64,000 nt of DNA from Gemmatimonadota bacterium (lineage in GTDB: Bacteria > Gemmatimonadota > Gemmatimonadetes > Palauibacterales > Palauibacteraceae). The translations under genes were made by a program, and so were the position numbers. Of the stretch, positions 1 to 56,854 are shown piece by piece. A model generated the notes under the pieces. That model was given only the letters and a program-made list of their open reading frames with translations, did not search any database and was not told the origin of the DNA. Position 1 is the first letter of the stretch; the number at the start of each line of letters is the position of its first letter. Where the stretch lies: positions 71,677 through 135,676 of the forward strand of contig JAJEEM010000059.1 in NCBI GenBank assembly GCA_022820995.1, written 5' to 3'.

Positions 1-478
1 CCGTTGACGGCCGCGACCACGGGCTGCGGCAACGTCTGGAGGGCCCGGTACACCCGCTGTCCCCTGTCGATGTAATCGCGGCGCCTTCGCTGCGAGCCCG
101 CGGGCGCGGCTCGTACTCCTCGGGACACCCGCTCCGCGGAATCGACATGGACGCGGCGCCCGTCCACGGGGGGCGTTTCGTCGCGGTGCGCCTTGAGGTC
201 CGCCCCGGAGCAGAATCCGCGGCCCGTGCCCGTCAGGATGACGACGCGGGTCTCCAGGTCGGCCGCGATGCGCGCGAGTTCGGCCTCCAGCATCTCGTAC
301 ATGGGGAGGCTGACGGCGTTGAGGCGATGGGGGCGGTTGAGGCGGAGGATCCGGACGGGACCCTCCGCCTCGACCAGAAGCGGGACTTCGGCTGCGGCGC
401 TCAGCTTCCCGCGTCGTCCGTCGTCGTGACGGGCTTCGCCGGCTTCACGTGCAGCTCGAGCCAGCGATCGGTCTCCCA
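1..478 (-). CDS. enoyl-CoA hydratase/isomerase (crotonase) family, partial: C-terminus lies beyond window start; start codon uncertain
   Basis: Reverse-complement translation of ~220-330 gives ...LETRVVILTGTGRGFCSGADLKAHRDE..., the classic crotonase oxyanion-hole motif; upstream reads ...EVPLLVEAEGPVRILRLNRP. Frame runs off position 1. Not in ORF track because incomplete. Start (GTG ~478?) is a guess. Confidence 0.55.
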
Positions 479-2872
479 CAGGACGTGCAGGACCGACTCG
501 CGCGCGGCGTACCCGTGGCTCTCGGCCGGCAGAAACACGAGCCGAGCCGTCGCGCCCAGCCCCTTCAGCGCCGCGTAGAAGCGCCGCGACTGGATGGGGA
601 AGGTGCCCGAGTTGTTGTCGTCCTCGCCGTGGATGATGAGGATCGGCTCGTTCACCTTGTCCGCGTGCATGAAGGGCGACATGTACAGGTAGAGGTCCGG
701 GTCCTCCCAGAAGAGCCGCTGCTCTCGCTGGAAGCCGAACGGCGTCAGCGTCCGGTTATAGGCGCCGCTCCGCGCCACGCCGGCCCGGAAGATGTCCGAG
801 TGGGCGAGCAGGTTGCCGGTCATGAAGGCGCCGTAGGAGTGTCCGCCGACGCCGACCCGATCCGGATCCACGACCCCGCGCCGCACGCCCTCGTCGACCG
901 CCGCCCGGGCGTTCGCCACCAACTGCTCGCGGAAGGAGTCGTTGGGCTCCGCGTCGCCCTCGCCGATGACCGGCATCGACGCATTGTCGAGCACCGCATA
1001 ACCCCGGGTCACGTACGGGACGGCGCCGCCGTAGGGGATCCGCGTGAACTGGTACGGCGAGTCGCGTCGCTGGCCGGCCGCCGCCGCGCTCTTGAACTCG
1101 GTCGGATACGCCCACACGAAGGTCGGGAGCGGACCATCGCGCTCCTGGTCGTAGTCCGCCGGCAGGTAGAGCGTCGCGGAGAGCGGGATGCCGTCCCCGC
1201 GCTCGTACTGGATCGCCTCCTTGCGGATGCCGGCAAACTGCGGATACGGGTGCGGGAACTCGGTCACCGCGCTGGTCGTCCCCCGCTCGAGGTCGCGCAG
1301 GAAGTAGTTCGGGGGCTCGTCCACGGACTCCCGGCGCGTCATCAGCCGCCCGTCTTCGAGGAGCGTGACCACGCCCTCGTAGTACGGCGCCTCGGAGCGG
1401 AACAACTCCTCTTCCTCTCCCGTCTCGAGGTTCCGCTTCCTGAGGAAGGGGCGGTTGCCTTCGGGCGACGCGCCCTGCCCCGCCAGGTAGATCGAGGATC
1501 CCCCGTCGGCGGTCATGAGGACGCCCTGGCCGCGCTCATTCGTCCTGAACATCGGGAAGCCGGGGTCGTTGTACCGGTCCTCCGTCTGCAGATCGAAGAT
1601 CAGCTCCATCTCGCCCGGGGCGTCCGGATCGATTCGGTAGGTGCGCTGCTGGCGGGTGGAGAACCAGTTCTCGTTCACGAAGGCGAACCCCTCCTCCGCC
1701 CACATCACGCCGCCGTAGCGGAGCGGGAGCGAGGCGATCGCCGCGGGTTCGCCGGAGAAGGGCGCCGCGTGCATGAACACCCGGTCGCGGATGTCCGCCT
1801 CGGCGAGGGCATCGCCGCCGTCCTGCGCCTCCGTCCAATACAGCGTCGCGTCCGCGTCGGCGCGCCACGAGATCGACCGCACGCCCGTCGGGACCGACCC
1901 GAACGACGTGGGGACGCCATCCTGGAGCGGGAGTTCGGCCACCCGGTGAACCACGTTCCCCTGCGTGTCCCACACCTCGATCGTGCTCGGGAAGCGGGAC
2001 GCCGGCACCTGGTACGAGTACGGCCGGTGAGTCGTCTGCACGAGCAGATGCTCGCCATCCGGCGAAGGCGAGGCGCCCGAGAAGATCGACGGATCTCCGA
2101 CCATGGCCACGGATCCGTCGAGGTCGACGCGGGCCAGCTGCGACGTCGAGTAGTACTCGTAGAGCGCCTCATCGTGCTGGTCCTGCAGCAGGTCCTGGTA
2201 GGTGCGGGCGGGGGCGGCTTCCCCCGAGGTCTCCTCGATCATGGGCGCCGTCGGAACGATCGGCTCGGCGGGCGCGGGGCCGCGGCCGGGCGGCACCGCC
2301 CTGGCGTAGAGGAAGTCTCCTTCCGGCGACCAGTTGAAGGGAGCCCCGAAGCCCACGTTCACGAGATCGAGGTCCGACAGCCGCCGCGCCGCCGCGGACG
2401 CGACGTCGAGGACCCAGAGCTGTACGGCCGAGTCGGTGTCGTGCGTGAACGCCACCGCGCTCCCGTTCGGCGACCAGCGCGTGTTGCGAATGCGCGGATT
2501 CTCCGGCAGGCCGGTCACGGCGCGCTCTTCCCCGTCGAAGGTGCGAAGCGCGAGGCCGTTCGAGGGCCGCGCGCGGCTGGGACCGTTCGTGCGCGGGTTG
2601 ATGCGCAGTCCGGCGATCCGCAGTTCGGGCGCGGCGACCTCGGCGATCGACGGCAGGCTCGGCCGCATCGTAAGCAGCATCACCGACTCGTCGGGACTCA
2701 GGCTGATCCCCGGGGTCGCCGGGGCGTCGACGAGCGCGGCGAGTTCGGCGGCCGGCGTCTGATAGCCGTCCGCACCCTCCTGCGCGGCGACATCCGCCGT
2801 GCCCGCGGCGAGAAGGAACGCGATGGAGAGGGAGAATCGAAGGATTCCGGGACTGCTGTGATCGTGTCGCAT
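401..2872 (-). CDS. S9 family serine peptidase (prolyl oligopeptidase/dipeptidyl aminopeptidase type) with N-terminal TolB-like beta-propeller; secreted
   Basis: Track ORF 401..3397 trimmed to ATG at 2872 (MRHDHSSPGILRFSLSIAFLLAAGTADVAAQEG = signal peptide). C-terminal GGHSYGAFMTGN (GxSxG nucleophile), DKVNEPILIIHGEDDNNSGT (Asp), ESHGY (His). N-terminal half has WSPDGS/TolB-like repeats. Confidence 0.85.
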   Translation of the reverse strand: MRHDHSSPGILRFSLSIAFLLAAGTADVAAQEGADGYQTPAAELAALVDAPATPGISLSPDESVMLLTMRPSLPSIAEVAAPELRIAGLRINPRTNGPSRARPSNGLALRTFDGEERAVTGLPENPRIRNTRWSPNGSAVAFTHDTDSAVQLWVLDVASAAARRLSDLDLVNVGFGAPFNWSPEGDFLYARAVPPGRGPAPAEPIVPTAPMIEETSGEAAPARTYQDLLQDQHDEALYEYYSTSQLARVDLDGSVAMVGDPSIFSGASPSPDGEHLLVQTTHRPYSYQVPASRFPSTIEVWDTQGNVVHRVAELPLQDGVPTSFGSVPTGVRSISWRADADATLYWTEAQDGGDALAEADIRDRVFMHAAPFSGEPAAIASLPLRYGGVMWAEEGFAFVNENWFSTRQQRTYRIDPDAPGEMELIFDLQTEDRYNDPGFPMFRTNERGQGVLMTADGGSSIYLAGQGASPEGNRPFLRKRNLETGEEEELFRSEAPYYEGVVTLLEDGRLMTRRESVDEPPNYFLRDLERGTTSAVTEFPHPYPQFAGIRKEAIQYERGDGIPLSATLYLPADYDQERDGPLPTFVWAYPTEFKSAAAAGQRRDSPYQFTRIPYGGAVPYVTRGYAVLDNASMPVIGEGDAEPNDSFREQLVANARAAVDEGVRRGVVDPDRVGVGGHSYGAFMTGNLLAHSDIFRAGVARSGAYNRTLTPFGFQREQRLFWEDPDLYLYMSPFMHADKVNEPILIIHGEDDNNSGTFPIQSRRFYAALKGLGATARLVFLPAESHGYAARESVLHVLWETDRWLELHVKPAKPVTTTDDAGS

Positions 2873-3064
2873 GGTACAGGCTCCAGCTGATGACCGACGT
2901 CGCGTGGTTCGTGATCGTGGCAACGGTGGCATAGTCCGAACCACCCGTAGCGCACGCAAGACGCGCCGCTGTCGCGCGCGCGACCCCGGTGCGATAGCGT
3001 TTCCGGGCCCGCGGGCGGCAGCGGCGTTCGCAGGCGCACACAAAAGGGAAAGGACGACAGGGAG

Positions 3065-3769
3065 ATGCGGATGATGGACGCACGTTACCTCCGGCTGTTT
3101 GCGGCGGGCGCCCTGGTGGCGGCGGGGTCGGCCGGCTGCGCACCCGGGGGAGATACCGAAGATGCCGACGCCTCCGCCGCGGCGGCCGAGGAGGCGGCTC
3201 AGGTGACGTCCCAAGGGGCGGCCCAGGTGGCGCTCGGGCCCGTGGATGGGCACGACCTGCCTCCGGCGGACCTCGAGCGGGTGCTCGCCGGCAGCCCCGC
3301 GCCCGACTTCACCGCCCTTTCGAGCACGGGCGAGCCGATCACCCTCTCGGACTACCGCGGAGAGAAGGACGTCATCCTCTTCTTCTACCGCGGCCACTGG
3401 TGACCGTACTGCGCAAAGCAGCTCGGAGAGCTGCGAGACTTCATGACGCCCGAACAGCGCGAACGGACCCAGCTCCTGGCGATCGCCCCGGACAGCCCCG
3501 AAGACATCGGACTAATGGTCGACCGCGTCCTCGAGGACTACGACTACGCCCTCGACTTCCCGCTGCTGTCGGATGACGGATCCGCGATCACCTACCGCTA
3601 CGGACTCCTGAACGAGGAGGACGGGCGCGGGCGCCAGATCCCGCACCCCACGACCTACGTCATCGACATGGACGGGACGGTGCGCTGGAGCTTCACCGAG
3701 GTGGACTACCGCGTCCGCCCCGAGCACGCCGACATCCTGGCCGCGCTCGAAGCCCTGGAGCAGCCGTAG
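3065..3769 (+). CDS. lipoprotein thioredoxin-fold redoxin (AhpC/TSA, PRX-like2 type) with in-frame TGA at 3401..3403 replacing first Cys of CxxC: candidate selenoprotein (U-P-Y-C); alternatively pseudogene/sequencing error
   Basis: Track ORFs 3065..3403 and 3443..3769 are in the same frame (both coordinate mod 3 = 2), separated only by TGA. Continuous translation ...APDFTALSSTGEPITLSDYRGEKDVILFFYRGHW[TGA]PYCAKQLGELRDF...FPLLSD...TYVIDMDGTVRW reads as a complete redoxin fold. N-term MRMMDARYLRLFAAGALVAAGSAGC = lipobox. Confidence 0.6.
3404..3434 (+). promoter_or_regulatory. candidate bacterial SECIS-like stem-loop immediately 3' of in-frame UGA
   Basis: gcagctc-gga-gagctgc perfect 7-bp stem at 3418..3434, 15 nt after UGA, G-containing apical loop; small cugc-gcaaa-gcag hairpin precedes it. 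Confidence 0.35.
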
Positions 3770-3783
3770 CGGGCCGTGGCAGA

Positions 3784-3811
3784 AGCCCCGCTGCGCTCGA
3801 GCGGCGGGGCT
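3784..3811. terminator. GC-rich inverted repeat between convergent genes (bidirectional terminator candidate, no T-tract)
   Basis: a-gccccgc-tgcgctcgagcg-gcggggc-t, palindromic around ctcgag; sits between redoxin stop (3769) and SDR stop (3810). Confidence 0.4.
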
Positions 3812-4751
3812 ACCGCGAGGCGGCGTCCTCCAGCCGGCAGCGGCCCATGCGGCAGGTGAGGCCGGTGAGTTCCTGACTCAGCTCCCGGAGGCGGGCGCGC
3901 GCCTCCGGGTCGTACGCCTGGGCGTTGGCCTCGGCGGGCCTGAGCCCGCTGAAGTACTGCCCGCTCTCGAAGTCATCGGAGTCGACGACCTGCATCGTCG
4001 CGTCGGCGCCCTCGGCGATGGTGGCGCGCGGGGTCGCGCCCAGCCGCCGCACCATGCCGGTCGGCATGTACGTCGCCGGATGGAGTGAGCCCACCACGAT
4101 GCCCGTCCCGGCCAGGTCCTCCGCGAGGTCGTGCGTGAACATGATCTGGGCGAGCTTGCTCTGTGCGTAGGCGCGGCGCCCGCTGAAATCGTTCTCGATC
4201 ATCACGTCGTCGAAGTCGATCGGCGCCTGTGCGCCGGACGACACGTTCACGATGCGCGACGGCGTGCTCTCGAGCAGCCGCGGCATCAGCAGGTGCGTCA
4301 GGAGGAAGGTGGAGAGGTAGTTCACCTGGAAGCGGTACTCGTGCCCGTCCTCTGTGACCCACCGCTCGTCCGGCGCCGACCCGAACCCCGCGTTGTTGAT
4401 CAGGATGTCCATCCGGTCGTAGTCGGCCAGCAGCGTCTCGGCGAAGGTCCGGACCTCCGCGAGCGACGCGAAGTCCGCGCGGTAGAAGCGGGCGCTCCCC
4501 GGCCCCGCCGCGTTGATGGCGTCCACCACCTCCGCTCCGCGCTCCTCGCTGCGCCCGTGGACGATGACGTGATCGCCCCGCGCGCCCAGCCGCAGGGCGA
4601 GTTCCCGGCCGAGGCCGGAAGTGGATCCGGTGACCAGGACCACCTTCTGTCCGGCGGCCGGCGCAGGGGTCGCCTGGGCCATGACTTCCGCGACGGAAGC
4701 GGACCAGGCGGACACGAGGACGGCAGCGGCCATCGCGATTTTTGTTGTCAT
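3810..4751 (-). CDS. short-chain dehydrogenase/reductase (SDR) with signal peptide
   Basis: Track ORF 3810..5219 trimmed to ATG 4751 (MTTKIAMAAAVLVSAWSASVA...), GGAGGA SD 8 nt upstream. VVLVTGSTSGLGRELA (TGxxxGxG), NNAG, YAQSKLA (YxxxK). Confidence 0.85.
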   Translation of the reverse strand: MTTKIAMAAAVLVSAWSASVAEVMAQATPAPAAGQKVVLVTGSTSGLGRELALRLGARGDHVIVHGRSEERGAEVVDAINAAGPGSARFYRADFASLAEVRTFAETLLADYDRMDILINNAGFGSAPDERWVTEDGHEYRFQVNYLSTFLLTHLLMPRLLESTPSRIVNVSSGAQAPIDFDDVMIENDFSGRRAYAQSKLAQIMFTHDLAEDLAGTGIVVGSLHPATYMPTGMVRRLGATPRATIAEGADATMQVVDSDDFESGQYFSGLRPAEANAQAYDPEARARLRELSQELTGLTCRMGRCRLEDAASR

Positions 4752-6718
4752 GGTACGAGTTCCTCCTCGACGAGGCGGGCGATCCACAGCCCGGAGTGGA
4801 GGTCGGAGGTGTAGATCCGGCCCTTGAACAGCTGGGCGCCCCACGTCATCGACCAGTTCGGCACCGCGGCGTTCGGCGATGACGTCTTGATGGCTCCGAT
4901 CTCGCGGCCCTGGCGATAAAGGTCGCCGCGCAGTTCCCCCGAAATATCCAGCACCCGCAGCCCCGCCTGATAGTAGCCGACGTAGAGCCGGTCGCGGTCG
5001 TCGCTCCACAGGTTGTGGGCTCCGGCCTCGGGCACGGTGTAGTGGGCGACCTTCACCGGGTCGTCCATGTTCGTCATGTCCAGGACCTCGACGAAGCCCC
5101 GCGCCTCGATGGGACCGAACGCGTTCGGATCCCAGTCGGACGGGTAGATCTCGGCCGCCACGAACAGGTACTTGCCGTGACGCCAGGCGACGTGCGTGTT
5201 CCCCTGCCCGGACACCCACCGCGAGACGAGCTTCGGGTCGCGGGCCGTGCCCCCGTGCGTGCCCGCCCCCGCGTCTAGGATATAAATGCCCTCGTTCCAG
5301 AACGATGCGTAGGCGTACCCGTCCTGGACGATGACGTCGTGCAGGCTGCGGACCGGTTCGTCGTGCACCCAGCGGTTGATCTCGCGCGGGTTCGCCGGAT
5401 CGGAGATGTCGATGATGACGATCTCGCTCGTGCCGTTATGGCAGGCGTAGACGAGATCCTCGTCCCCCAGGATCCAGACGTTGTGCACGCCCCCCGTCAC
5501 CGTGTCCGTGTACTCGGAGAGGATCTCCGGATGGGCGGGATTCGAGAGGTCGAGGAGGACGATCCCGTTCCTCCGGCTCGAGGCCCCCTCGCGGGTGACG
5601 ATCCCGAGGCGGTTGTCGGGGTGGATCTTCACGTCGTTGATGCGGCGGGCGTCGAGCTGGATGGAGTCGGTGAGGACCGGCTGCGCGGGGTCCGTCACGT
5701 CCCACACCTTCATCCAGTCGTGGTAGAAGGTCCCGAGGTAGGCGTAGTCGCGTCCGTCCACCCCCTCGAACACCCACGTGTCGCCGGCCCGGTGCGTGGA
5801 CGTGATCCCGCTGCCCACGAGTTCGAGCCGGGCCGTGTGGCGGCGGGGGCCGACGCGCACGGAGACCGTCCGGGCGATGGCCGGGCCCGCGATCGCGGTC
5901 ACGTGATAGGTGCCCGGCTCCTCCGCCACGAAGAGTCCGCGTCCGTCGACGGGTTCGACGCTCGCCCCGCTCGGCGTGACGCTCCACAGCGGCGCGAGGG
6001 CGATCTCCTCCCCGCTTCCGTCGCGGCCGAGCAGCCGAAACGCCGCGACATCTCCCGTCGAGAGCGAGGTCACATCACCGGAAGCCACCAGTTCGTAATC
6101 CTCGGCCGGGTTCGGCCGCACCGTGACCTCGACCTCCGTCGCGGCGGCGCCGGCGGAGACGGTCAGGACGGTCCGCCCGGGCACGTGGCCGAGGACGCGC
6201 CCCGCGTTGTCCACCGTCGCGATGGCGGGATCGGCCGAGGCGAACTCGAACTCGACGTCCTCCACGGCGCCGCCCATCGCCGTCCAGGCGCCGACATCGA
6301 GGGCGGCCGTCGCGCCCGCGTAGACGGGGCCGGCGACGCGGGCCTCGATCCGGTCGGCTTCGAGGCGGGGGACGACGATCCGGACCCAGCTCGGCTGGCC
6401 GCGGAACATCGCCGCCACGCGGGACTCGCCCGGCCGCACCGCGGTCACCAGCCCCTCGGCCGTCACCGTCACCCCATCGTCGGCCGCGAACCAGCGCACT
6501 TCCGAGGCGGCGCCCTCTTCCGCGGTCCCCTGGATCTCCGCGCTGAGCTGGAAGGACACGCCGACCTCGAGTTCGAGTTCAGCGGGCGAAGCGACCGCGT
6601 ACACCCGCTCCTGCGCCGAAAGAGGAGCCGCCAGGCCGACGGCGATCACGGTCGCCGCTGCCATGGCGGCCGCTCCGGCGACGGGAAGGGACAGGAACTG
6701 CGGGCGTGTCACTATCAT
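4748..6718 (-). CDS. secreted LVIVD-repeat beta-propeller protein with N-terminal Ig-like (Big_2-type) domains
   Basis: Trimmed to ATG 6718 (MIVTRPQFLSLPVAGAAAMAAATVIAVGLAAPLSAQE). Repeats IVLLDLSNPAHP, IVIIDISDPANP, IYILDAGAG, VEVLDMTNMDDP, LRVLDISGE = LVIVD repeat pattern. 4-bp ATGA overlap with upstream gene. Confidence 0.7.
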   Translation of the reverse strand: MIVTRPQFLSLPVAGAAAMAAATVIAVGLAAPLSAQERVYAVASPAELELEVGVSFQLSAEIQGTAEEGAASEVRWFAADDGVTVTAEGLVTAVRPGESRVAAMFRGQPSWVRIVVPRLEADRIEARVAGPVYAGATAALDVGAWTAMGGAVEDVEFEFASADPAIATVDNAGRVLGHVPGRTVLTVSAGAAATEVEVTVRPNPAEDYELVASGDVTSLSTGDVAAFRLLGRDGSGEEIALAPLWSVTPSGASVEPVDGRGLFVAEEPGTYHVTAIAGPAIARTVSVRVGPRRHTARLELVGSGITSTHRAGDTWVFEGVDGRDYAYLGTFYHDWMKVWDVTDPAQPVLTDSIQLDARRINDVKIHPDNRLGIVTREGASSRRNGIVLLDLSNPAHPEILSEYTDTVTGGVHNVWILGDEDLVYACHNGTSEIVIIDISDPANPREINRWVHDEPVRSLHDVIVQDGYAYASFWNEGIYILDAGAGTHGGTARDPKLVSRWVSGQGNTHVAWRHGKYLFVAAEIYPSDWDPNAFGPIEARGFVEVLDMTNMDDPVKVAHYTVPEAGAHNLWSDDRDRLYVGYYQAGLRVLDISGELRGDLYRQGREIGAIKTSSPNAAVPNWSMTWGAQLFKGRIYTSDLHSGLWIARLVEEELVP

Positions 6719-44007: not shown

Positions 44008-46299
44008 TCAGTCGGAGGGCGAGGCGAAACTGCCGAGTTGCGCGAAGTGGTTTGCGCGCCTGTAGGCCCATTCCGCAGCCTCCAAGTTCCCGTGCAACTC
44101 CTCGGAAGCTCCCTGGAAGATGTGCGCCGTGTAGTAGGCGCCGGGGATGTTCGACCTGGTGGAAGGATCCGGCCACTCGTCCCATGCCAGGACGTCATCC
44201 ACGAGGAACACGCCTTCCAGCAGTTGTCCGGTGCGGATCCGGTCGTTCCACGCCGGCAGCCCCGAACCCCGGAAGTACTCGCCCAGGTCGACGAGCGCCT
44301 CGGATGCCTGGAGCGGACCGTCCACGAGTTTGAAGGCGAGGCCCTGCCGGACGAGGTGCGGCTGCAGCTGCCAACGGTCCCACAGGGGCCTCGCCGTGGA
44401 CGCGAAGTACACCGGCCGGTCCCCCAGAGACTGCCGCGCGATCTGGAACACGCGGATATCGGCTGGCGATAGAACGTCGCCTTCCCTCAGCGGACCCGTG
44501 ATCCAGTCGGAAAGCCGATAGGTCGAGTCCTCGGATATGGACTGCCCCCGCGAGAGGGCATCGATCCCCGTACCGGATGGAGGGATGGCCGAGCGCGTCG
44601 GCGGGGTCGCGGCCATCTCCGCGTACAGGTCCGCCGCCGTCGCCGGGTCGAACGGCCGCTGGCACACGATCGTCGTGGGGGCGTCCTCGGGCGACTCTCC
44701 CGGCCCGCACGGCTTCGTCAGCCGCCGCAGTTGCCGGTGGTACCAGTCCGTCCCCAGGTACGACTGCACGATCACGGTCACGTCGCGCCGGATCCCCTCG
44801 ACTTCCTGCAGATACCAGAGCGGGAAGGTGTCGTTGTCGCCGTAGGTGAAGAGCACGGCGTAGGGTTCGACGGACTGCAGCATGTTGTAGGCGAGGTTGC
44901 GGGCGGCGCGGTCCCCGCTCCGGTCGGCCCGGGCGAAGTTGAAGAAGAAGGGGATGAGGCCGAGCGCGAGGAGCGCCGCCGCCTTCCGGTGCCGGGGGCC
45001 GAACCCCGCCGGCACCCACTCAGGATCGCGCGCCGGGGCAGATGCCGTCCAGCGTCCCCACAGGGCGGCGAGTCCCAGCCCGGCGTAGATCCCCCACATC
45101 TGGAAGCCGATGATGAAGAAGTAGTCGCGTTCGCGGACCTCGTGGGCGTCGAGGAGCGGCGCCTCCTCCCAGTACATCGAGTAGCCGTATTTGAAGTTCA
45201 GGTAGTAGACGAGCAGCAGCGTGACGGTGAAGAAGAGCGTGCCCGCGTAGACGAACGTCTTCCGGTCGCGCCGGAGATGGGTCCACATCCCGACCAGCGC
45301 GAGGAACAGGAAGAGGATGCTCGCGGCGACCCGCGCGCCCGGCGGCAGCGAGCGCGCCCACTGCCAGTCGAAGTACTGCCAGTAGTTCGCGTACTGGGCC
45401 GAGAGCGGCGCCTGGCGCAGCGTGACCGGGGTCGGCGCGTACTGGGCGCGGATCAGTGAGAGGGCGAGCGGCTCGCACGCCACGGCGAGCTTGCTCTGCC
45501 CGTAGGGGTCGTCGATCCGCCGCGGCGTGACGGCCGAGAGGAGCGTCGGACACTCGGGGTCCGCCTCGTCGATGACCGGGTTCTGCGCCGAGCGGATGGG
45601 GACGAAGAGGAACTGCAGCGAGTACCCCACCGCGAGCAGCGCGACGGCGGGCCCCAGGACGCGCGGGTTCAGGGCGGCCCGCCAGCGGTGCACCAGCACG
45701 AACGCGGCCAGCGCCAGCGCCGGGAGCATCGACATCGTGTGGTTCGCCCACCCCAGCCCGAGCACGAGCGCGATGAGCAGGAGGAGGCGGTTGCCGCGCA
45801 CCGTGTCCGCTCGGTCCATCCAGACCATGGCGAGGTAGCTCACGAGGGCCACGACGAACATCGAGAGAGGATAGACCTTCTCGTTCAGGTTCGACTGCGT
45901 CCACACGGTGAAGGCGGTGGCCCCGATCCACACGGCGGCGACCGCGGCGACGAGCACCTCGTGCCGGTTCTCGCGGAAGCGCCCGACGATGCGGACCACA
46001 GCCAGGAACCAGAAGAAGCTCGCCCCCGCGGAGAGGGTGGCGCCGAGCGCGTTGATCCGCAGCGCGACGGGGAGGCCCGTGAACCCGGTCAGGAGGTCCC
46101 ACGCGCGGCCGACGACGACGAAGAGCGGATTCCCCGGCGGGTGGGGGAGCCCGAGGATGTGCGCCGTGGTCACGTACTCCGACGCATCCCAGAACCCGAC
46201 CGTCGGAGCCAGCGTCAGGAGATAGAGGACCCAGATCGTCGCCGCGGTCAGCAGCCCCCAGGCCCGCAGCGTCAGCCGGCCGACCTTCTCCCGCTCCAC
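44008..46299 (-). CDS. DUF2723-family (GT-C-fold, protein O-mannosyltransferase-like) membrane protein with C-terminal TPR-like region
   Basis: GFWDASEYVTTAHILGLPHPPGNPLFVVVGR = DUF2723 N-terminal hallmark; start GTG 46299 immediately after paralog stop (track's 46329 is TTG). Confidence 0.7.
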   Translation of the reverse strand: MEREKVGRLTLRAWGLLTAATIWVLYLLTLAPTVGFWDASEYVTTAHILGLPHPPGNPLFVVVGRAWDLLTGFTGLPVALRINALGATLSAGASFFWFLAVVRIVGRFRENRHEVLVAAVAAVWIGATAFTVWTQSNLNEKVYPLSMFVVALVSYLAMVWMDRADTVRGNRLLLLIALVLGLGWANHTMSMLPALALAAFVLVHRWRAALNPRVLGPAVALLAVGYSLQFLFVPIRSAQNPVIDEADPECPTLLSAVTPRRIDDPYGQSKLAVACEPLALSLIRAQYAPTPVTLRQAPLSAQYANYWQYFDWQWARSLPPGARVAASILFLFLALVGMWTHLRRDRKTFVYAGTLFFTVTLLLVYYLNFKYGYSMYWEEAPLLDAHEVRERDYFFIIGFQMWGIYAGLGLAALWGRWTASAPARDPEWVPAGFGPRHRKAAALLALGLIPFFFNFARADRSGDRAARNLAYNMLQSVEPYAVLFTYGDNDTFPLWYLQEVEGIRRDVTVIVQSYLGTDWYHRQLRRLTKPCGPGESPEDAPTTIVCQRPFDPATAADLYAEMAATPPTRSAIPPSGTGIDALSRGQSISEDSTYRLSDWITGPLREGDVLSPADIRVFQIARQSLGDRPVYFASTARPLWDRWQLQPHLVRQGLAFKLVDGPLQASEALVDLGEYFRGSGLPAWNDRIRTGQLLEGVFLVDDVLAWDEWPDPSTRSNIPGAYYTAHIFQGASEELHGNLEAAEWAYRRANHFAQLGSFASPSD

Positions 46300-46300
46300 G

Positions 46301-48628
46301 TCAGTTGGCGGGCGCGCCGAGACCCGCAAGGAACCCGAAACGGTCCGCGCGCTGGTACGCCCGCTCGGCGGCTTCCACGTCGCCCAAGTGTTCCTCCGTC
46401 ATCCCCTGCAGGTAGTACGCGAGGTAGTACTGGGCCGGGATGCTCGACTGCGTGGACGGCTCGGGCCACTCCTCCCACCCCAGCACGTCCTCGACCTCGA
46501 ACACCTCCCACAGCAGTTCCGCCGTGCGCGCCCGGTCGTTCCACGTCGGCGATATCGTGCCCGGCATGTACTCGCGCAGGTCCACGAGGTCGTCCGTCGC
46601 CTCGAGCGGCGCGTCCACGAGCTTGAAGGCGAGCCCGTGCCGGACGAGGTGCGGTTGCAGCCCCCACTTCCCGTACACGGGCGGGGCGGTCGCCGCGAAG
46701 TAGACCGGCCGGTCCCCCAGCGACTGCTGCATGATGTGGAAGACGAGGATGTCGGGGTACAGAATCGAGTCCCCGCCGCGCACCGTCGCCGTCACCGCGC
46801 TCGAGACCTGGAACGCCGTGTCCCGGGCGACCGCGATCCCCGGCGTGAGCCCGTCGATCTGCGCGTCGTTCAGTGCGATGATCGAGCGCGTCGGAGACGG
46901 TGCCGCCGCGTCGGCATACGGGCTCGCCGCATTCGCTTCATCGAAGGGACGCTGACACACAATGGTCGTCGGGGAGTCCGCCGCGGACACCCCCGGCTCG
47001 CACGGCGTCGTCAGCGACCGCAACTGCTTCGGATACCAGTCCGTGCCGAGGTAGGAGTGGACGATGACGGTCACGTCGCGCCGAATCCCCTCCACCTCCT
47101 GCAGGTACCAGAGCGGGAAGGTGTCGTTGTCCCCGTTCGTGAACAGCACGGCGTACGGCTCGACCGACTGCAGGATGTTGTACGCCCAGTCGCGGGCCGC
47201 GCTGTCCTCCGTCCGGTCCGCGCGCGCGAAGTTGAAGAGGAAGGGGACGAGCGCGACGGCGAGGATCGGCGCCGCCCTCCGGTGCCGCGCGCTGAACCCG
47301 GCCGGGCGGTCCTCCGGCAGACTCGTCCGGTCCGGTGGCACCGCGCTCCTCCGTCGATCCGGGACGGACCAGTTGCCCCACAGCGCGACGAGCCCCAGCC
47401 CGGCGTAGATCCCCCACAGCTGGAAGCCGATGATGTAGAAGTAGTCCCGCTCCCGGACCTCGTGCTGGAGGATGTTCGGCACCTCCTCCAGGTAGAGGGA
47501 GTAGCCGTGCTTGAAATTCAGGTAGTAGACGAGGAGCAGCGTGACCGTGAAGAAGAGCGTGCCCGCGTAGACGAAGGTCTTCCGGTCGCTCCGGAAGTGG
47601 GTCCACAGACCGAGGAGCGCGAGGAAGAGGAAGAGCATGCTGACGGCGACCCGGCCGCCCGGCGGCAGCGAGCGCGCCCACTGCCAGTCGAAGTACTGCC
47701 AGTAGTTGGCGTACTGGCGGTGAAGCGGAGCCTGGCGCTGCGTGACCGGCCCCGGGCCGTACTGGTCGCGGATGAGCGAGAGCGCAAGCGGCTCGCAGGC
47801 CACCGAGAGCTTGCTGTTCCCGAACCGGTCGTCGATCACGCTCGGCGTGACGGCCGAGAGGAGCGTCGGACACTCCGGGTCCGCCTCGTCGATGATCGGG
47901 TTCTGCGCCGACCGGATGGGGACGAAGAGGAGCTGCACCGAGTAGCCGACCGCGAAGAGCGCGATGCCCAGCCCGAGGACGCGCGGGTTCAGGGCGGCCC
48001 GCCAGCGGTGGAGGAGGACGAAGAGCGCGAGCGCCGGGCCCGGCAGCAGCGACATGGTGTGGTTCGACCAGCCCAGTCCGAGCAGGAGCGCGATGAGCAC
48101 GAGCAGCCGGTTCCCGCGGGCCGTGTCCGCCTCGTCCACCCACACCATCGTCAGGTAGCTCACGAGCGAGACGATGAAGAGGGAGAGCGTGTAGACCTTT
48201 TCGTTCAGATTCGACTGGGTCCAGACGGTGAAGGCGGTCGCCCCGATCCAGACCGCGACCATCGAGGCCACGAGGATCTCGTGCCGGTTCTCGCGGAAGT
48301 GCGCGACCATGCGCGCCACGGCGAGGAAGGAGAAGAAGCTCGCCCCGGCGGAGAGCGTCGCGCTGAGCACGTTGATGCGGAGCGCGACCGGGAGGCCGGT
48401 GAAGCCGAGCAGGAGATCCCACACGCGGCCCACGAGGACGAAGAACGGGTTCCCCGGCGGGTGCGGGAGCCCGAGGATGTGCGCCGTGGTCACGTACTCC
48501 GACGTGTCCCAGAAGCCGGTGGTCGGCGCGATCGTGAGCAGATAGAGCGACCACACGGCGAGGGCCGTCACCAGCCCCCACAGACGCAGCGTCAGCGGAC
48601 CGATCTTCTCGCGCTCGATACCGTTCAT
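46301..48628 (-). CDS. DUF2723-family membrane protein, tandem paralog of 44008..46299
   Basis: GFWDTSEYVTTAHILGLPHPPGNPFFVLVGR; collinear with downstream copy. Confidence 0.7.
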   Translation of the reverse strand: MNGIEREKIGPLTLRLWGLVTALAVWSLYLLTIAPTTGFWDTSEYVTTAHILGLPHPPGNPFFVLVGRVWDLLLGFTGLPVALRINVLSATLSAGASFFSFLAVARMVAHFRENRHEILVASMVAVWIGATAFTVWTQSNLNEKVYTLSLFIVSLVSYLTMVWVDEADTARGNRLLVLIALLLGLGWSNHTMSLLPGPALALFVLLHRWRAALNPRVLGLGIALFAVGYSVQLLFVPIRSAQNPIIDEADPECPTLLSAVTPSVIDDRFGNSKLSVACEPLALSLIRDQYGPGPVTQRQAPLHRQYANYWQYFDWQWARSLPPGGRVAVSMLFLFLALLGLWTHFRSDRKTFVYAGTLFFTVTLLLVYYLNFKHGYSLYLEEVPNILQHEVRERDYFYIIGFQLWGIYAGLGLVALWGNWSVPDRRRSAVPPDRTSLPEDRPAGFSARHRRAAPILAVALVPFLFNFARADRTEDSAARDWAYNILQSVEPYAVLFTNGDNDTFPLWYLQEVEGIRRDVTVIVHSYLGTDWYPKQLRSLTTPCEPGVSAADSPTTIVCQRPFDEANAASPYADAAAPSPTRSIIALNDAQIDGLTPGIAVARDTAFQVSSAVTATVRGGDSILYPDILVFHIMQQSLGDRPVYFAATAPPVYGKWGLQPHLVRHGLAFKLVDAPLEATDDLVDLREYMPGTISPTWNDRARTAELLWEVFEVEDVLGWEEWPEPSTQSSIPAQYYLAYYLQGMTEEHLGDVEAAERAYQRADRFGFLAGLGAPAN

Positions 48629-48788
48629 TACGCCCCTGCTACGCTCTCCCGGTCGGGAAGTTCGTTGGGAAGATACCGCCTCGGGCCTGTCGGGTCCCGC
48701 GCCGGCCCGGCTCGGCGATTCCGACTGGCCGACGCGGCGAGCCGAAACTAGCCGGCGGCCCGAATGCGAGCGAGCGGCTGCCGGACCC

Positions 48789-50003
48789 TCAGGGGTCGGA
48801 TCGGTCGAGCGGCCACAGTTGGACGTATTCGATTCCGAGTTCGTCGTATGCGCCGCCCAGGAGGTAGTCGGGGCCGATCTCGAAGATGCGCAGGCCCGGC
48901 GGGGTCTCCAGGAAACCGAGGACCCGGCCCTCGGGGTCGAAGACCGTCCAGACCCGGTCCGTCTCGCCCGGCTGGCGGTATTCCTCGACCCAGAGATGCT
49001 CCAGTTCGTCCACCCGGATGCTGTTGAAGGCGGGGAAGGCGTCCGTCAGCGGCATGTCGGCGACTTCGGCCAGCGCGGCGGACCGATCCGCGCCGGACAT
49101 GCTCTCGTACCGCCGGGCGAAGTAGGCGTTGAGATCCGCGCGGGTCGGGCGCCGAGCCTCGTGGCCGCGCCGCACGATCCGAGTCAGATTGCCGTCCACG
49201 GCGTGGGCCCGGAACTCGTAGCGGTCGTTCGTGCCGATCAGGACGAGGTCCCCCCACGCGGCGTAGATGGGGTCGCGGCCGAAGGGGTGCGGCCGGACGG
49301 ACATGTCTTCGGCATTGGCGGACCATTCGCTGCCCGGATGCGTGCCGAGCGTCGAATGCAGGCCGCCATCCGGCTCGACGATGCCGTACTCCACGGTTCG
49401 GCGCGACAATCCGTCCGGGAACTCGCCGCCGGCGAAGCGAAAACCGGAGGAGGACACGACGAACAGCTTCCCGTCCGGCAGGACTCCGGCCAGGCGCTGG
49501 TAGGGATCGGGCAGCCGGGACGTGCGGCCGTGCTCTCCGTTCGCGTCGAAGACGGAGAACCTCCGCGCGCCCGTGTCCGATGCCGAGATGGAATCGCCGG
49601 GCCAGCCCCCGACGCCGGAGGGGCCCCCCAGGCTGAACTCCCCCGGCCCGTCCCCCTGCCCTCCCCAGGATTGCAGGTGAGTCCCGGACGCGTCGAACGC
49701 CCTCAGTTCACCGGAACCCGCGTTCGCGACCAGGATCCTTCCGTCCGGCAGCCGGGTCGCGTCCGCGACCCGAAACAGCTCGTACGCAGGATCGGCCTCG
49801 ACGGCGCCGATGGAGAGGGTGGGCTCCGCACCGACCCGCCAGCCGAGCCGCGAATCCGCCGCGGGCTCCTCGTTCTCCACGATCGTCACGCCCGCGCTGT
49901 CCCGCACCACCGATTGAAGGCCCGAGTCCATGGCCAGGGCGCTCCCGCCGGCGGCGAGGAAACCCGCCGCCGCAAACAAGCCGCCGAGAAGGAAGTTCCG
50001 CAT
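48789..50003 (-). CDS. 6-bladed beta-propeller lipoprotein, paralog type A (A1)
   Basis: MRNFLLGGLFAAAGFLAAGGSALA; SVVRDSAGVTIVENEEP...ELRAFDASG...WPLDRSDP. Confidence 0.65.
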   Translation of the reverse strand: MRNFLLGGLFAAAGFLAAGGSALAMDSGLQSVVRDSAGVTIVENEEPAADSRLGWRVGAEPTLSIGAVEADPAYELFRVADATRLPDGRILVANAGSGELRAFDASGTHLQSWGGQGDGPGEFSLGGPSGVGGWPGDSISASDTGARRFSVFDANGEHGRTSRLPDPYQRLAGVLPDGKLFVVSSSGFRFAGGEFPDGLSRRTVEYGIVEPDGGLHSTLGTHPGSEWSANAEDMSVRPHPFGRDPIYAAWGDLVLIGTNDRYEFRAHAVDGNLTRIVRRGHEARRPTRADLNAYFARRYESMSGADRSAALAEVADMPLTDAFPAFNSIRVDELEHLWVEEYRQPGETDRVWTVFDPEGRVLGFLETPPGLRIFEIGPDYLLGGAYDELGIEYVQLWPLDRSDP

Positions 50004-50035: not shown

Positions 50036-51163
50036 TCAACCTTTCCGGGTGAAGCGGACGCGTGCGGCGCGCCACACGTCGAGCGAGTCGCGCGTCGTGC
50101 CGTAGAGCGTCGTCTCGGTGACCCAGGGAGAGCCGAGATGGCTGACGCGGCGCGGCCAGCGGTATCGCGCCACCAGCGTGCCCTCGAGGTAGACATCGGC
50201 CTCGCGCATCTCCCGTCCGTCGACCCCCGTCTTCTCCACCCACAGCCGGCCGCCGCGATCGAAGAAAAGTTCGGCAAGAACCGGTTTGCGGTCCGGGATC
50301 CCGTGCGGGTGGTCCCGCAGGTCGAATCGCTCCTTCTCCTGGTCGATCCGGGCCTGCGCGCCCTGGCGTTCGTCCGGGCTCAACTCCGGTCCCTGCAGCG
50401 GGGCTTCGATCGATGACGTGCTTCCGTCGGGATGGTGAAGCGTGATCGCATACGCGGAGCTGACTGCCGTGGCCCACCATCCTCCCGGCCCATGTCCGTG
50501 AATCCACAGGGGACCGAAGGGCTGGTAGAGGAAGAACTGCGCCGCCTGATCCCCCACCATGATGTCGACCGGGCTGAAGCCGGTGGCCTGCTCCTCGGCC
50601 GTCGCCATGGGGACCGTGTCCACGGCCGTGCCCGGACCCAAGTGGAAGCGCGTGAACCGGGTCTCACCGGCTGGCGTCCCCAGATCGACGAGCCGGCCCT
50701 CCGCGTCGAAGGTGACCGGAGCGATCAGGTTGAAGGAGGCGTTGACGCTCCTGAGCCCGCGCACGTACTCCGCGCCCCCGTCGTCGAGCTGGAACGCGCT
50801 GTAGCGGACGCTCTCCCGCACCCACAGGAGGCCATCGGGCCCGAAGGTCATGCAGCAGGGATTCGTCAGCTCGCCGGGCCCCTCCCCCTGGCCGCCGAAG
50901 CGGAAGGCGAAGCGCCCGTCCGGCTCGAACACCCGCACTTCGTGCGTCTGGTAGTCCGCGACGATCATCCGCCCGCCGTCGTCCTCCACGATGGAGCCGA
51001 TGGTCGTAAACAGGTAGGGATCCTCCCCCTCGACTTCGCCGATCTCGAGGTCGATCGCCCCCTCGAAGACCGGTATCTCGGGAGGCGGAGCCGGGGCGCC
51101 GCGATCGACACACGCGGCGGCTCCCAGCAGCAGCCCGAGCGCGACCGGGATGCCGAGCTTCAC
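50036..51163 (-). CDS. beta-propeller lipoprotein, paralog type B (B1)
   Basis: MKLGIPVALGLLLGAAAC lipobox; RMIVADYQTHEVRVFEPDGRFAFRFGGQGEGPGEL. Confidence 0.6.
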   Translation of the reverse strand: MKLGIPVALGLLLGAAACVDRGAPAPPPEIPVFEGAIDLEIGEVEGEDPYLFTTIGSIVEDDGGRMIVADYQTHEVRVFEPDGRFAFRFGGQGEGPGELTNPCCMTFGPDGLLWVRESVRYSAFQLDDGGAEYVRGLRSVNASFNLIAPVTFDAEGRLVDLGTPAGETRFTRFHLGPGTAVDTVPMATAEEQATGFSPVDIMVGDQAAQFFLYQPFGPLWIHGHGPGGWWATAVSSAYAITLHHPDGSTSSIEAPLQGPELSPDERQGAQARIDQEKERFDLRDHPHGIPDRKPVLAELFFDRGGRLWVEKTGVDGREMREADVYLEGTLVARYRWPRRVSHLGSPWVTETTLYGTTRDSLDVWRAARVRFTRKG

Positions 51164-52371
51164 GAGCCGGAACGGTCGAGGGGCCAGAACTCTACGTACT
51201 CGATGTCGAGTTCGTCCTCCCGCGTGCCCAGGATGTAGCCCTCTCCGATTTCCGCAATTCGGCTGATTTCCGGCATGTCCACGAGGCCGAGGACGCGGCC
51301 CTCCGGATCGAACACCGTCCAGAGCCGGTGATCCTCGCCGGGGAGGCGGAACTCCTCGACCCAGAGGTGTCCCAGTCGATCGACCAGCGCCCTGTCAAAG
51401 GCGGGAAACGCTTCCACGAGCGGCATGTCCCCGACCGCCTCGAGCGCCTCCGGATCGTCGGGGTTCTGGCCGGCGACGTAGTCGCGGAGGTCGGCTCGCG
51501 TCGGCGGGCGGGCTTCGTGGTCGCGGCGAACGATCCGCGCGAGCGACCCGTCCGTCCGGTAGGCACGGATCTCATAGCGGTCGTTGGTACTGATCACGAT
51601 CAGGTCGCCCCACGTGAGGGCGAACGCGTCGCGACGGAACGGGTATGCGCGCGGCCGCGCGCCGGCGGGCGTGTTGACGACGTACAGTTCCGATCCCGGG
51701 TACGTCCCGAGATCCCGATGGACGCTGCCGTCCGGCTCCAGAATCCCGTACTCCAGATCCGGGCGCGCGAGTTCCGACGGGCCCTGCGGGCTGCCGGCGT
51801 AGGTGGTGAGCGTGGCCGCCAGCACCCTCCCGTCCGGGAGCGGCCCGACGACGCTCGGGTATACACCCGCCGGCCTGAGAGCGCGCCCGAACGTCCCATC
51901 GATCCCGAATATCGAAGCGCGGCCGCTGAACGGATCCCTCGCCATCAGCGAATCGCCGGGCCAGGGCATCACGCGACTCGGTGCCATGGGGCCGAACTCG
52001 CCGGGCCCGTCGCCCTGGCCGCCCCACGATTCGAGGTGGATTCCGTCCGGATCGAAGACGCGGAGTTCGCCGGAGCCCGCGTTGGCGACCACGATCCGCC
52101 CGTCGGAGAGCCTCGTGGCGCCCCCGACACGGAAGAGTTCGTACGCCGGATCGCCCGCCGGGGACCCGATCGTCACGGCCGGCGCCTCCCCGACCCGCCA
52201 TCCCAGCCGCGAATCGATCGGGGGGCGCTCGTTCTCGACGATCGTGACCCCGGCGCTGTCCCTGACGACACTTCTCAGGCTTCCACTGCCATCCCCACCG
52301 TTGTCACCGCCACCCGCGCACGCCGACCCCGCGATAACCGCGACGAGGACGGTCAGAGTTCTCCCGCCCAT
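51160..52371 (-). CDS. 6-bladed beta-propeller lipoprotein, paralog type A (A2)
   Basis: VLVAVIAGSAC; SVVRDSAGVTIVENERP...WPLDRSGS. Confidence 0.65.
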   Translation of the reverse strand: MGGRTLTVLVAVIAGSACAGGGDNGGDGSGSLRSVVRDSAGVTIVENERPPIDSRLGWRVGEAPAVTIGSPAGDPAYELFRVGGATRLSDGRIVVANAGSGELRVFDPDGIHLESWGGQGDGPGEFGPMAPSRVMPWPGDSLMARDPFSGRASIFGIDGTFGRALRPAGVYPSVVGPLPDGRVLAATLTTYAGSPQGPSELARPDLEYGILEPDGSVHRDLGTYPGSELYVVNTPAGARPRAYPFRRDAFALTWGDLIVISTNDRYEIRAYRTDGSLARIVRRDHEARPPTRADLRDYVAGQNPDDPEALEAVGDMPLVEAFPAFDRALVDRLGHLWVEEFRLPGEDHRLWTVFDPEGRVLGLVDMPEISRIAEIGEGYILGTREDELDIEYVEFWPLDRSGS

Positions 52372-52455
52372 AACTCTCCCCCATTGGCTCGGTTCAATCG
52401 CACCGAACCGGGGACACGATCAGCGGCGGGTTGGTTGTGCGGAGGTCGAGCGGCC
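52372..52455 (-). promoter_or_regulatory. conserved 5' leader element (hairpin cggttc-N9-gaaccg + GGGGGAGAG SD) shared with 55721..55802
   Basis: ctctccccc..cggttcaatcgcaccgaaccggggacacgatca...ttggttgtgcggaggtcgagcgg aligns with 55721-55802. Confidence 0.45.
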
Positions 52456-52645
52456 CTGCGAGGTCGGCACTCGGGACAGCGCCCCCCCTTGCTGGAAACC
52501 AAGAGCCCCGAGGACGGAAAACGCCCCCGGGGCCCTTACCCCAGCGTCTTGCTGCACCCGAAGGCCTTTTGCAGTAGAGGACGGCCTGAGGCGTACACTT
52601 GAAGGATCGTCAACTCTCATCCCAACCGCAACCTGCGGAGTTTCT

Positions 52646-53359
52646 ATGCTACCCATCGAAGGCCTTCGGAGTGCGCTTTCAGCGGAGCGACTGAGTGCCT
52701 ATGCCCTGCCTGAGGACACCGACGAGGTCGACTGCGTGGCCCGGTATCTGTGGAACCTGGCGCTCTGTAGCGCCCTCCACCCGGCGCTTCATACCCTTGA
52801 GATTACCGTCCGGAACCGCCTCTTCGACATCTCCAGAAGGATCGTCAATGAGACAAATCTCAGTTTTGACAAGGTTCCGTGTTGGCTCGATGCTCGACCT
52901 TCCCTGCTTGCCGACCCCGAGCGTGACGCCGTCGAGAAGGCGAAAGCAACGATTCTGAGGCGAAGGAGTTCGATGACCGAGGGCCGGCTTGTCTCGGTCC
53001 TGGGGTTTGGTTTCTGGGTGAGCTTGTGCAAGCGGTCATATGAACAAGGGCGCGCCGGCGGGCCGCGCCTCTGGCCCGAACTGGCGACGAGGGGATTCCC
53101 GCATTTACCAAGAGCCCAAGGCACACGCAGCCAGATCTTCCACGCCCTGGATCCGCTTCGCGACCTGCGTAACCGCGTGTCTCACCATGAGGCCGTTTGG
53201 GACCGGAAGCTTGACCAAAGCCATCAGGAAATCCTCAGAACGATAGCCTGGATCAACCCCGAATTGGCGGCGACCCTGGAGAAACACTCCCCGCTGCCGG
53301 CAGTACTCGACCGGGGCGTAGCCGGGTACCGCGCCCAGGCCGAGGCAATCATCGGGTGA
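52646..53359 (+). CDS. HEPN-type Abi-like (Abi_2/AbiD-AbiF family-like) protein; lower-GC insertion
   Basis: 237 aa; ...FHALDPLRDLRNRVSHHEAVWD (R-x4-H HEPN motif); GC visibly lower than flanks; opposite strand to flanking paralogs. Confidence 0.45.
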   Translation: MLPIEGLRSALSAERLSAYALPEDTDEVDCVARYLWNLALCSALHPALHTLEITVRNRLFDISRRIVNETNLSFDKVPCWLDARPSLLADPERDAVEKAKATILRRRSSMTEGRLVSVLGFGFWVSLCKRSYEQGRAGGPRLWPELATRGFPHLPRAQGTRSQIFHALDPLRDLRNRVSHHEAVWDRKLDQSHQEILRTIAWINPELAATLEKHSPLPAVLDRGVAGYRAQAEAIIG

Positions 53360-53375
53360 CAGCCGCCGGCTTTGC

Positions 53376-55720: not shown

Positions 55721-55802
55721 GACTCTCTCCCCCGGATCGGTTCAGTCTTTGCCGAACCGGGGACACGGTCACCTACAGATTTGGTTGCGCGGGATCGAGC
55801 GG
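55721..55802 (-). promoter_or_regulatory. conserved 5' leader element, copy 2 (see 52372..52455)
   Basis: ctctccccc..cggttcagtctttgccgaaccggggacacggtca...ttggttgcgcgggatcgagcgg. Confidence 0.45.
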
Positions 55803-55815
55803 AGCGGGCGCCGTG

Positions 55816-56829: not shown

Positions 56830-56854
56830 CGCGACTCCTGTTGCTGCGTCTATC

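Follow-up and report, generated by a model that had tools for sequence, protein, structure and literature searches.

The 64-kb stretch of Gemmatimonadota DNA considered here (64,000 nucleotides of contig JAJEEM010000059.1, referred to below as the window) contains an RNA hairpin at positions 3418-3434 that is very probably a bacterial selenocysteine insertion sequence (bSECIS) element. It would serve the in-frame UGA codon at 3401-3403, which lies within a gene for a peroxiredoxin (Prx)-like redoxin and is predicted to encode selenocysteine (Sec). Comparison of homologous nucleotide sequences reveals that hairpin and UGA are conserved together across more than 150 loci, and that the hairpin is absent from homologues of the cysteine (Cys) type. 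We infer, beyond this, that SelB binds the hairpin, that selenium is incorporated into the protein, that the sel machinery is encoded in the genome and that the product is exported. The features with which the argument is concerned are as follows.

3065..3769, plus strand: predicted selenoprotein gene for a Prx-like thiol:disulfide oxidoreductase with an AhpC/TSA-redoxin fold, 234 codons, motif W-U-P-Y-C.
3065..3139, plus strand: probable lipoprotein signal peptide MRMMDARYLRLFAAGALVAAGSAGC, with a lipobox-like motif ending in Cys25, read from the translation.
3401..3403, plus strand: in-frame UGA, the predicted Sec codon, at the N-terminal position of a UxxC redox motif and aligned with the Cys of CPYC homologues.
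3418..3434, plus strand: predicted bSECIS hairpin of seven Watson-Crick base pairs, GCAGCUC/GAGCUGC (3418-3424/3428-3434), lying within the codons for K-Q-L-G-E-L-R; the 17-nt RNA reads GCAGCUCGGAGAGCUGC.
3419-3424/3428-3433, plus strand: near-invariant 6-bp core of the hairpin, outside which the outer pair 3418-3434 covaries.
3425..3427, plus strand: apical loop GGA, closed by a C-G pair; predicted SelB contact, with the family consensus G-[G/U]-N.

When the UGA is read as a residue, translation of 3065-3769 gives a product of 234 residues with the sequence FYRGHW-U-PYC, in which the UGA is residue 113. The Pfam profile AhpC-TSA (PF00578) matches residues 76-208, a stretch that includes residue 113, with an E-value of 9.3e-30 and a score of 103.6 bits (cut-off 26), and Redoxin (PF08534) matches the same gene with an E-value of 3e-21. 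The tblastn alignments obtained from 80 genomes cover query residues 1-176, the UGA included. Close relatives carry L-A-G-C or A-A-G-C at the same N-terminal place as the lipobox-like motif, and the gene product is, on the evidence of its translation, probably an exported, periplasmic selenoprotein.

Public gene calls break this gene into two open reading frames (ORFs), 3065-3403 and 3443-3769. Dozens of half-proteins in the databases (P0002 and P0089-P0120 are among the miscalled proteins) either end exactly at ...FFYRGHW or begin downstream at an internal methionine, with MTPEQR, and in two JGI calls, P0001 and P0024, the TGA is rendered as Trp to give 'WWPYC'. Taken at face value, such calls would suit a UGA that has nothing to do with Sec, namely one that arises from a split gene, a pseudogene or a sequencing error, one that has been reassigned (genetic code 4 or 25, as Trp or Gly), or one that is passed by SelB-independent near-cognate read-through stimulated by the hairpin, and the lack of sel genes and tRNA-Sec within the window, considered further below, would also fit it. 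The comparative evidence nevertheless makes this alternative improbable. Of 161 homologous loci, 154 retain a TGA at the codon equivalent to 3401-3403. These 154 come from metagenomes as well as from Gemmatimonadota, Longimicrobiales, Binatia, Deltaproteobacteria and Acidobacteria metagenome-assembled genomes (MAGs), at protein identities down to 47%. The position of the TGA is exactly that of the catalytic Cys, for the protein search also returned full-length Cys homologues, FYRG[HY]W-C-PYC, at 43-53% identity, and these forms have TGC or TGT at the homologous codon. In all of the TGA-type loci the protein similarity runs past the TGA to the C-terminus. The conservation of the TGA at the catalytic Cys in 154 loci, together with that of the protein beyond it, excludes a sequencing error or a pseudogene, and the earlier proposal of recoding over a simple error is therefore upheld.

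The individual scans agree with this picture. In species-representative genomes, 80 loci were found. At one end is Ca. Palauibacter, to which the window evidently belongs (98% identity); other Gemmatimonadota and Longimicrobiales lie in between, and at the other end are Binatia, Deltaproteobacteria and Blastocatellia MAGs (47%). Near-identical copies of the gene are present in complete chromosomes (NZ_OZ253465.1 and OZ220691.1, both of Ca. Palauibacter, OZ242312.1 and NZ_OZ244907.1). Of the 80 loci, 79 have the TGA by motif search; the 80th, on inspection, also has a TGA, within the variant motif U-SFC. A metagenome scan with Cys-type proteins as queries returned 73 TGA forms and just seven Cys forms. 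Reassignment across the genome can be set aside in a similar way. TGA is the commonest stop codon among the well-supported ORFs of the window, most of which end in it, and a scan for in-frame TGA codons found TGA 3401 to be the only one in the window that is flanked by coding signal on both sides; these two observations exclude a genome-wide reassignment. Since TGA is the usual stop in the window, a local signal is needed if this UGA is to be recoded. With regard to read-through, the combination of a Sec/Cys pair in a UxxC redox motif with a small, G-containing apical loop at the canonical spacing is the mark of SelB-dependent decoding. By these comparative data, the UGA at 3401-3403 is a site of local recoding at the position of the redox-active Cys.

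Variant Sec motifs occur in three of the relatives: U-P-Y-Y in L122, which is without the resolving Cys, U-S-F-C in L053 and U-T-W-C in L101. All three retain QLGEL or QLGKL downstream. The MAG isolate LejiaD_2_62_10 has two paralogous TGA-containing copies (L057 and L059) on different contigs, both with a U-A outer stem pair.

From position 3401 onward the window reads TGA CCG TAC TGC GCA AAG CAG CTC GGA GAG CTG CGA. The 7-bp stem with a GGA loop that was first noted from the sequence at 3418..3434 agrees with both the letters and the RNAfold prediction, in which the hairpin is present in the minimum free energy (MFE) and centroid structures alike; folded in isolation, the 17-nt hairpin has an energy of -10.1 kcal/mol. 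The spacing given at that time, with the stem starting some 15 nt and the loop some 22-24 nt after the UGA, proves to be exact: 14 nt separate the UGA from the stem, which starts at the 15th nucleotide, and the loop occupies nucleotides 22-24. Within the window, 18 of the 1168 TGA trinucleotides (1.5%) precede a hairpin with a mismatch-free stem of 7 bp or more that obeys the bSECIS rules. Judged on the single sequence, the hairpin thus appears only weakly beyond chance; once the relatives are brought in, it appears far beyond chance.

The relatives were aligned without gaps as 151 Sec-type loci, comprising 133 distinct 60-nt segments. The register of the hairpin is identical in all 133, with stems of 6-7 bp. 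Standard pairs fill 95.0% of the cells, a level that none of 500 column shuffles reaches; displacing the 3' partners by one to three columns lowers it to 23-53%; RNAalifold independently finds the 6-bp helix. The five inner pairs of the stem are near-invariant. The outermost pair (alignment columns 27-43) is G-C in 62 segments and U-A in 35, including Arg...Arg codons that are CGG...CGA in one case and CGU...AGA in the other. Pair 33-37 changes from C-G to U-A six times (CUU...AAG), and pair 30-40 changes from G-C to A-U once, in locus L018, by two synonymous changes (CAA...UUG). A G-U wobble occupies a single cell across the pair counts. In the loop, 118 of 125 distinct sequences have G-G-N and seven have G-U-N. 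The first position is always G, and the third varies freely.

The strongest signal is found in the synonymous sites, where the codons of the stem are frozen. With residues numbered from the Sec position, codon usage and codon entropy are as follows.

Gln+6, stem: CAG in 142/143, 0.06 bit.
Leu+7, stem: CTC in 131/143, 0.54 bit.
Glu+9, stem: GAG in 125/126, 0.07 bit.
Leu+10, stem: CTG in 142/143, 0.06 bit.
Gly+8, loop: mixed codons, 1.99 bits.
Leu at -19, -8, +13 and +14 (conserved 76-100%), outside the hairpin: mixed codons, 1.6-2.3 bits.

This contrast in the aligned codons indicates that the stem is selected at the level of RNA.

Two further structures near the UGA do not share this behaviour. 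The preliminary description had placed a smaller hairpin, cugc-gcaaa-gcag (3409-3421), ahead of the main one. The letters exist, but it is not a conserved feature: its gcag (3418-3421) is also part of the main stem, so only one of the two can form at a time, 61 of the 133 relatives have lost its fourth pair, and it displays no covariation, with 449 of 500 shuffles equalling it. RNAalifold also proposes a 4-bp mini-helix around the UGA (GG.CA....UG.CC; alignment columns 1-14, window 3392-3405). All of its pairs are dictated by the coding sequence (the Gly, His, Trp, UGA and Pro codons) and no compensatory change is seen, so conservation in the alignment is evidence neither for nor against it. 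No conserved lower stem was found below the hairpin by RNAalifold on the alignment of relatives.

A comparison with the Cys-type homologues provides the control. Their DNA was available for 12 loci, which reduce to 11 distinct sequences, and these were compared with 125 distinct Sec-type sequences, with the following outcome.

Six in-register Watson-Crick pairs: Cys-type 0/11, Sec-type 111/125.
Mean MFE of the 17-nt segment: Cys-type -2.3 kcal/mol, Sec-type -8.7 kcal/mol (Mann-Whitney p = 2e-8).
CTC at Leu+7: Cys-type 2/11, Sec-type 113/125 (Fisher p = 4e-7).
CTG at +10: Cys-type 4/11, Sec-type 124/125 (Fisher p = 2e-8).

These figures bear directly on the suggestion that the hairpin is a by-product of coding, in other words that the codons of a conserved peptide, A-K-Q-L-G-E-L, happen to be self-complementary and that the RNA has no function. 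There is some substance to this. The codons for Q-L (CAR YUN) and E-L (GAR YUN) are by nature near reverse-complementary, so that part of the pairing comes free, and the Cys-type genes already have three to six of the seven in-register pairs. Moreover, the peptide pattern QL.E[LM] is conserved in the Cys forms too. Among 65 CxxC proteins, 62 have the peptide QL[KTSGAQRV][EGNDK][ML], of which QLKEM is the commonest version, and the other three, from Streptomyces, have ALRSL; the Sec forms almost always have QLGEL. What a coding by-product does not account for is the loss of synonymous freedom in the stem, where entropies of 0.06-0.5 bit stand against 1.6-2.3 bits for the same amino acids elsewhere and for the freely varying wobble position of the loop, or the synonymous compensatory pairs (CAA...TTG, and CGT...AGA as against CGG...CGA). 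In addition, the two Cys-type genes that encode an identical QLGEL do so with other Leu codons that make the stem weaker (CAG TTG GGC GAG TTG and CAG CTG GGC GAG TTG), and fold at only -3.0 and -4.3 kcal/mol. A check against Cys homologues had been proposed at the outset, and the hairpin was found in none of the 11 distinct sequences, these two included. Finally, the Sec forms tolerate far less variation at Gly+8 and Leu+10 than the Cys forms do, which implies that the RNA seems to constrain the protein and not the reverse. By comparison of these codons, the coding explanation is largely refuted and is left as very improbable. The element looks rather like a sharpened version of a coding palindrome that was there beforehand and that has, in return, fixed Gly+8 and Leu+10.

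The genomic surroundings of the two forms were also inspected. A gene with a DsbD domain adjoins four of the five Cys-type homologues for which DNA context was available: in L161 and L162 it has DsbD_N, DsbD_TM and Thioredoxin_7, and in L163 and L164 only DsbD_N. An MsrA (PMSR) gene also adjoins the homologue in L164. This pattern suggests a role as a periplasmic thiol:disulfide reductase. The context of the Sec-type genes is not conserved, with pyridine nucleotide-disulphide oxidoreductase neighbours in three of seven scanned flanks and unrelated genes in the others, and the flanks of these seven loci gave no operon-level clue.

A family covariance model was built for a 27-nt element from 62 relatives at no more than 71% protein identity, from which the window and its close kin were excluded. 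On the window this model gives one hit, at 3413-3439, with 39.5 bits and an E-value of 5.5e-9, the next best match having 14.3 bits. On the 12 Cys-type loci it gives at most 13 bits anywhere and at most 9.5 bits at the homologous position. The model also bears on the idea that CAGCTC-NNN-GAGCTG is a palindrome at the level of DNA, as a protein-binding or other site unrelated to translation. Changes from G-C to U-A and from C-G to U-A are equally expected of an inverted repeat, and only one G-U wobble cell is seen. However, the plus strand of the site scores 39.5 bits against 9.4 bits for the minus strand. The element is, furthermore, tied to the UGA, being present in the Sec forms and absent from the Cys forms of the same gene, and it keeps a fixed distance from the UGA, within a coding region, in several phyla and in unrelated neighbourhoods. 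A DNA site is hence the least probable of the explanations weighed here and can be regarded as extremely unlikely.

The published description of the bSECIS consensus (the Zhang & Gladyshev model, given in the legend to Fig. 2 of a 2026 review, PMC13188914) asks for an upper stem of 4-16 bp capped by an apical loop of 3-9 nt. At least one of loop positions 1 and 2 should be G, usually as N1-G-[G|U]-N-N2, where N1 pairs with N2. The UGA and the loop should be 16-37 nt apart, and the MFE should be -7.5 kcal/mol or lower. The window hairpin has a 3-nt loop, GGA, on seven perfect base pairs; the loop and its closing pair read C-GGA-G; the distance from UGA to loop is 21 nt (3404-3424); and the MFE is -10.1 kcal/mol, with 88% of the Sec-type relatives at -7.5 kcal/mol or lower. 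In functional terms, the UGA that precedes the hairpin is in frame and corresponds to Cys in homologues (W-U-P-Y-C against W-C-P-Y-C), and the structure of the hairpin is conserved with covariation in Sec orthologues and absent from Cys orthologues.

In comparison with the archetypes, fdhF and fdnG of E. coli, the window hairpin is alike in its placement in the coding region directly 3' of a Sec-UGA and in its small G-[G/U] loop. It differs from a typical bSECIS element in having a very short GGN triloop, a perfect 6-7 bp stem and no bulged U. It is unrelated in primary sequence to its E. coli counterparts, which is the usual situation for a bSECIS element. The spacer of the minimal fdhF element is about 11 nt, against 14 nt in the window hairpin.

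Several observations weigh against the assignment of the hairpin as a bSECIS element, in addition to the free pairing of the QL and EL codons and the ambiguity of the covariation mentioned above. Over the 66-nt region 3395-3460 the RNA is no more stable than its dinucleotide shuffles (z = +0.9), a score that is uninformative for DNA with 69% GC. Rfam returned no SECIS family at E <= 10 in 3000-3900, nor at gathering level across the whole window, and the matches that were returned (mir-3135, a snoRNA and others) are chance ones. bSECIS elements are gene-specific and are poorly covered by Rfam. The model search that the preliminary description had called for therefore has two sides, with no match in Rfam on the one hand and, on the other, agreement with all four of the published consensus properties and 39.5 bits from the family model. 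No selA, selB or selD gene and no tRNA-Sec was found within the window by Pfam on about 56 ORFs and by ARAGORN, which detected no tRNA of any kind there; ARAGORN likewise detected no tRNA-Sec in the 60 of the 80 genome-derived flanks that were scanned. Lastly, the 2026 review (PMC13188914) grades the Prx-like UxxC family as 'predicted with high confidence', which means that Sec is a prediction in that family as well.

Set against these points, the agreement with the consensus, the family model and the absence of the element from Cys-type genes continue to favour a bSECIS element, as first proposed, and the recruitment of SelB would follow from it. The steps of decoding can be outlined from the established E. 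coli system. With the UGA in the ribosomal A site, the hairpin, which begins 14 nt further on, would be located at the entrance of the mRNA channel. SelB, in complex with GTP and Sec-tRNA(Sec), would bind the G-[G/U]-N apical loop and the upper part of the stem through its C-terminal domain and would then deliver selenocysteine in competition with release factor 2 (RF2). Decoding in this way would yield the complete Prx-like redoxin, with U-P-Y-C at its active site, and this protein would probably be exported.

The encoded protein can be placed within a known group. The Prx-like thiol:disulfide oxidoreductases, or Prx-like 1 (PF00578, UxxC), are an established family of predicted selenoproteins (PMC1088965, PMC13188914), attributed to Kryukov & Gladyshev 2004 and Zhang et al. 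2005 and 2008, with WP_010940744.1 as a published reference protein. The window protein has the same PF00578/PF08534 domain and has Sec at the first Cys of a CxxC motif, and both Sec and Cys forms exist in each case. Its motif is UxxC (U-P-Y-C) and not the TxxU of Sec-Prx as described in PMC1088965. In an alignment with AhpE of M. tuberculosis, the Sec corresponds to the Thr of TxxC and the second Cys to the peroxidatic Cys, unlike in true Prx proteins, in which the TxxC/U motif ends in the Sec or Cys. On its domain, motif and alignment, the window protein is a member of this known Prx-like (UxxC) family. The clade to which it belongs has some features of its own, in that it is centred on Gemmatimonadota (Ca. 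Palauibacter and Longimicrobiales), carries a signal or lipoprotein peptide, and has Sec forms that outnumber the Cys forms by 154 to 7 among the retrieved DNA loci.

A thioredoxin/peroxiredoxin fold is also common to the PrxU (TxxU) and SelL-related proteins. The corresponding NCBIfam models score the window protein at 36.4 bits against a curated cut-off of 270 (NF040737, peroxi_PrxU) and at 37.1 bits against a curated cut-off of 120 (NF040769, SelL_rel_redox), and no NCBIfam family is matched above its cut-off. By these profile scores, the window gene is not a member of either the PrxU or the SelL-related family.

A further, rather unlikely suggestion is that the hairpin represents a distinct, sequence-specific class of bSECIS element. 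The primary sequences of bSECIS elements normally drift, whereas the CAGCUC-G[G/U]N-GAGCUG core is near-invariant across more than 150 loci in several phyla, forms a minimal, perfect triloop stem of 6-7 bp without a bulge or a lower stem, and is found in a probably exported (lipoprotein or periplasmic) clade dominated by Sec. Such a class could have been exapted from the reverse-complementarity of the QL and EL codons and would now constrain the protein, with Gly+8 and Leu+10 fixed in the Sec forms alone. If this were true, the recognition of the element by SelB in Gemmatimonadota could differ from the paradigm established for E. coli and Moorella.

The remainder of the window is described briefly. 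The selenoprotein gene lies between a Peptidase_S9 gene (404-2890, minus strand) and a short-chain dehydrogenase gene (3813-5219, minus strand). At 8586-11753 on the plus strand there is an ORF of 1056 codons in which APH (phosphotransferase), Peptidase_M23 and class-III aminotransferase domains occur together, which is either an unusual fusion or a set of genes merged by the mechanical ORF call. A defence- or toxin-like cluster is formed by 11796-12980 (minus), 13039-13479 (minus) and 17688-18152 (plus), which encode AAA_14/DUF4143 ATPase, PIN-domain and HEPN-domain proteins. A class-V aminotransferase, with a fold of the cysteine desulfurase / selenocysteine lyase type, is encoded at 15960-17396 (plus), 12 kb from the predicted selenoprotein gene. 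Two large tandem paralogues at 44011-46398 and 46304-49045, both on the minus strand, contain a TMEM260-like protein O-mannosyltransferase domain, and several long ORFs with high GC at third codon positions (377-419 aa) within 51163-57027 and 58783-59913 have no Pfam match at E <= 1e-5.

As a whole, the hairpin and its gene are an ordinary example of a well-known mechanism, and no new mechanism is revealed. The main consequences are for annotation, since well over a hundred genomes and metagenomes currently have the gene split into two 'redoxin domain' fragments or its UGA read as Trp, errors that can now be corrected. The 133 distinct sequences, together with the Cys-type controls, also form an unusually clean comparative set for the study of how an RNA structure constrains a coding sequence. 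No mention of selenocysteine use is made in the ecogenomic description of Palauibacterales, and a literature search on selenoproteins in Gemmatimonadota or Palauibacter returned nothing specific. The findings make the use of selenocysteine very probable in Ca. Palauibacter and in many other Gemmatimonadota.

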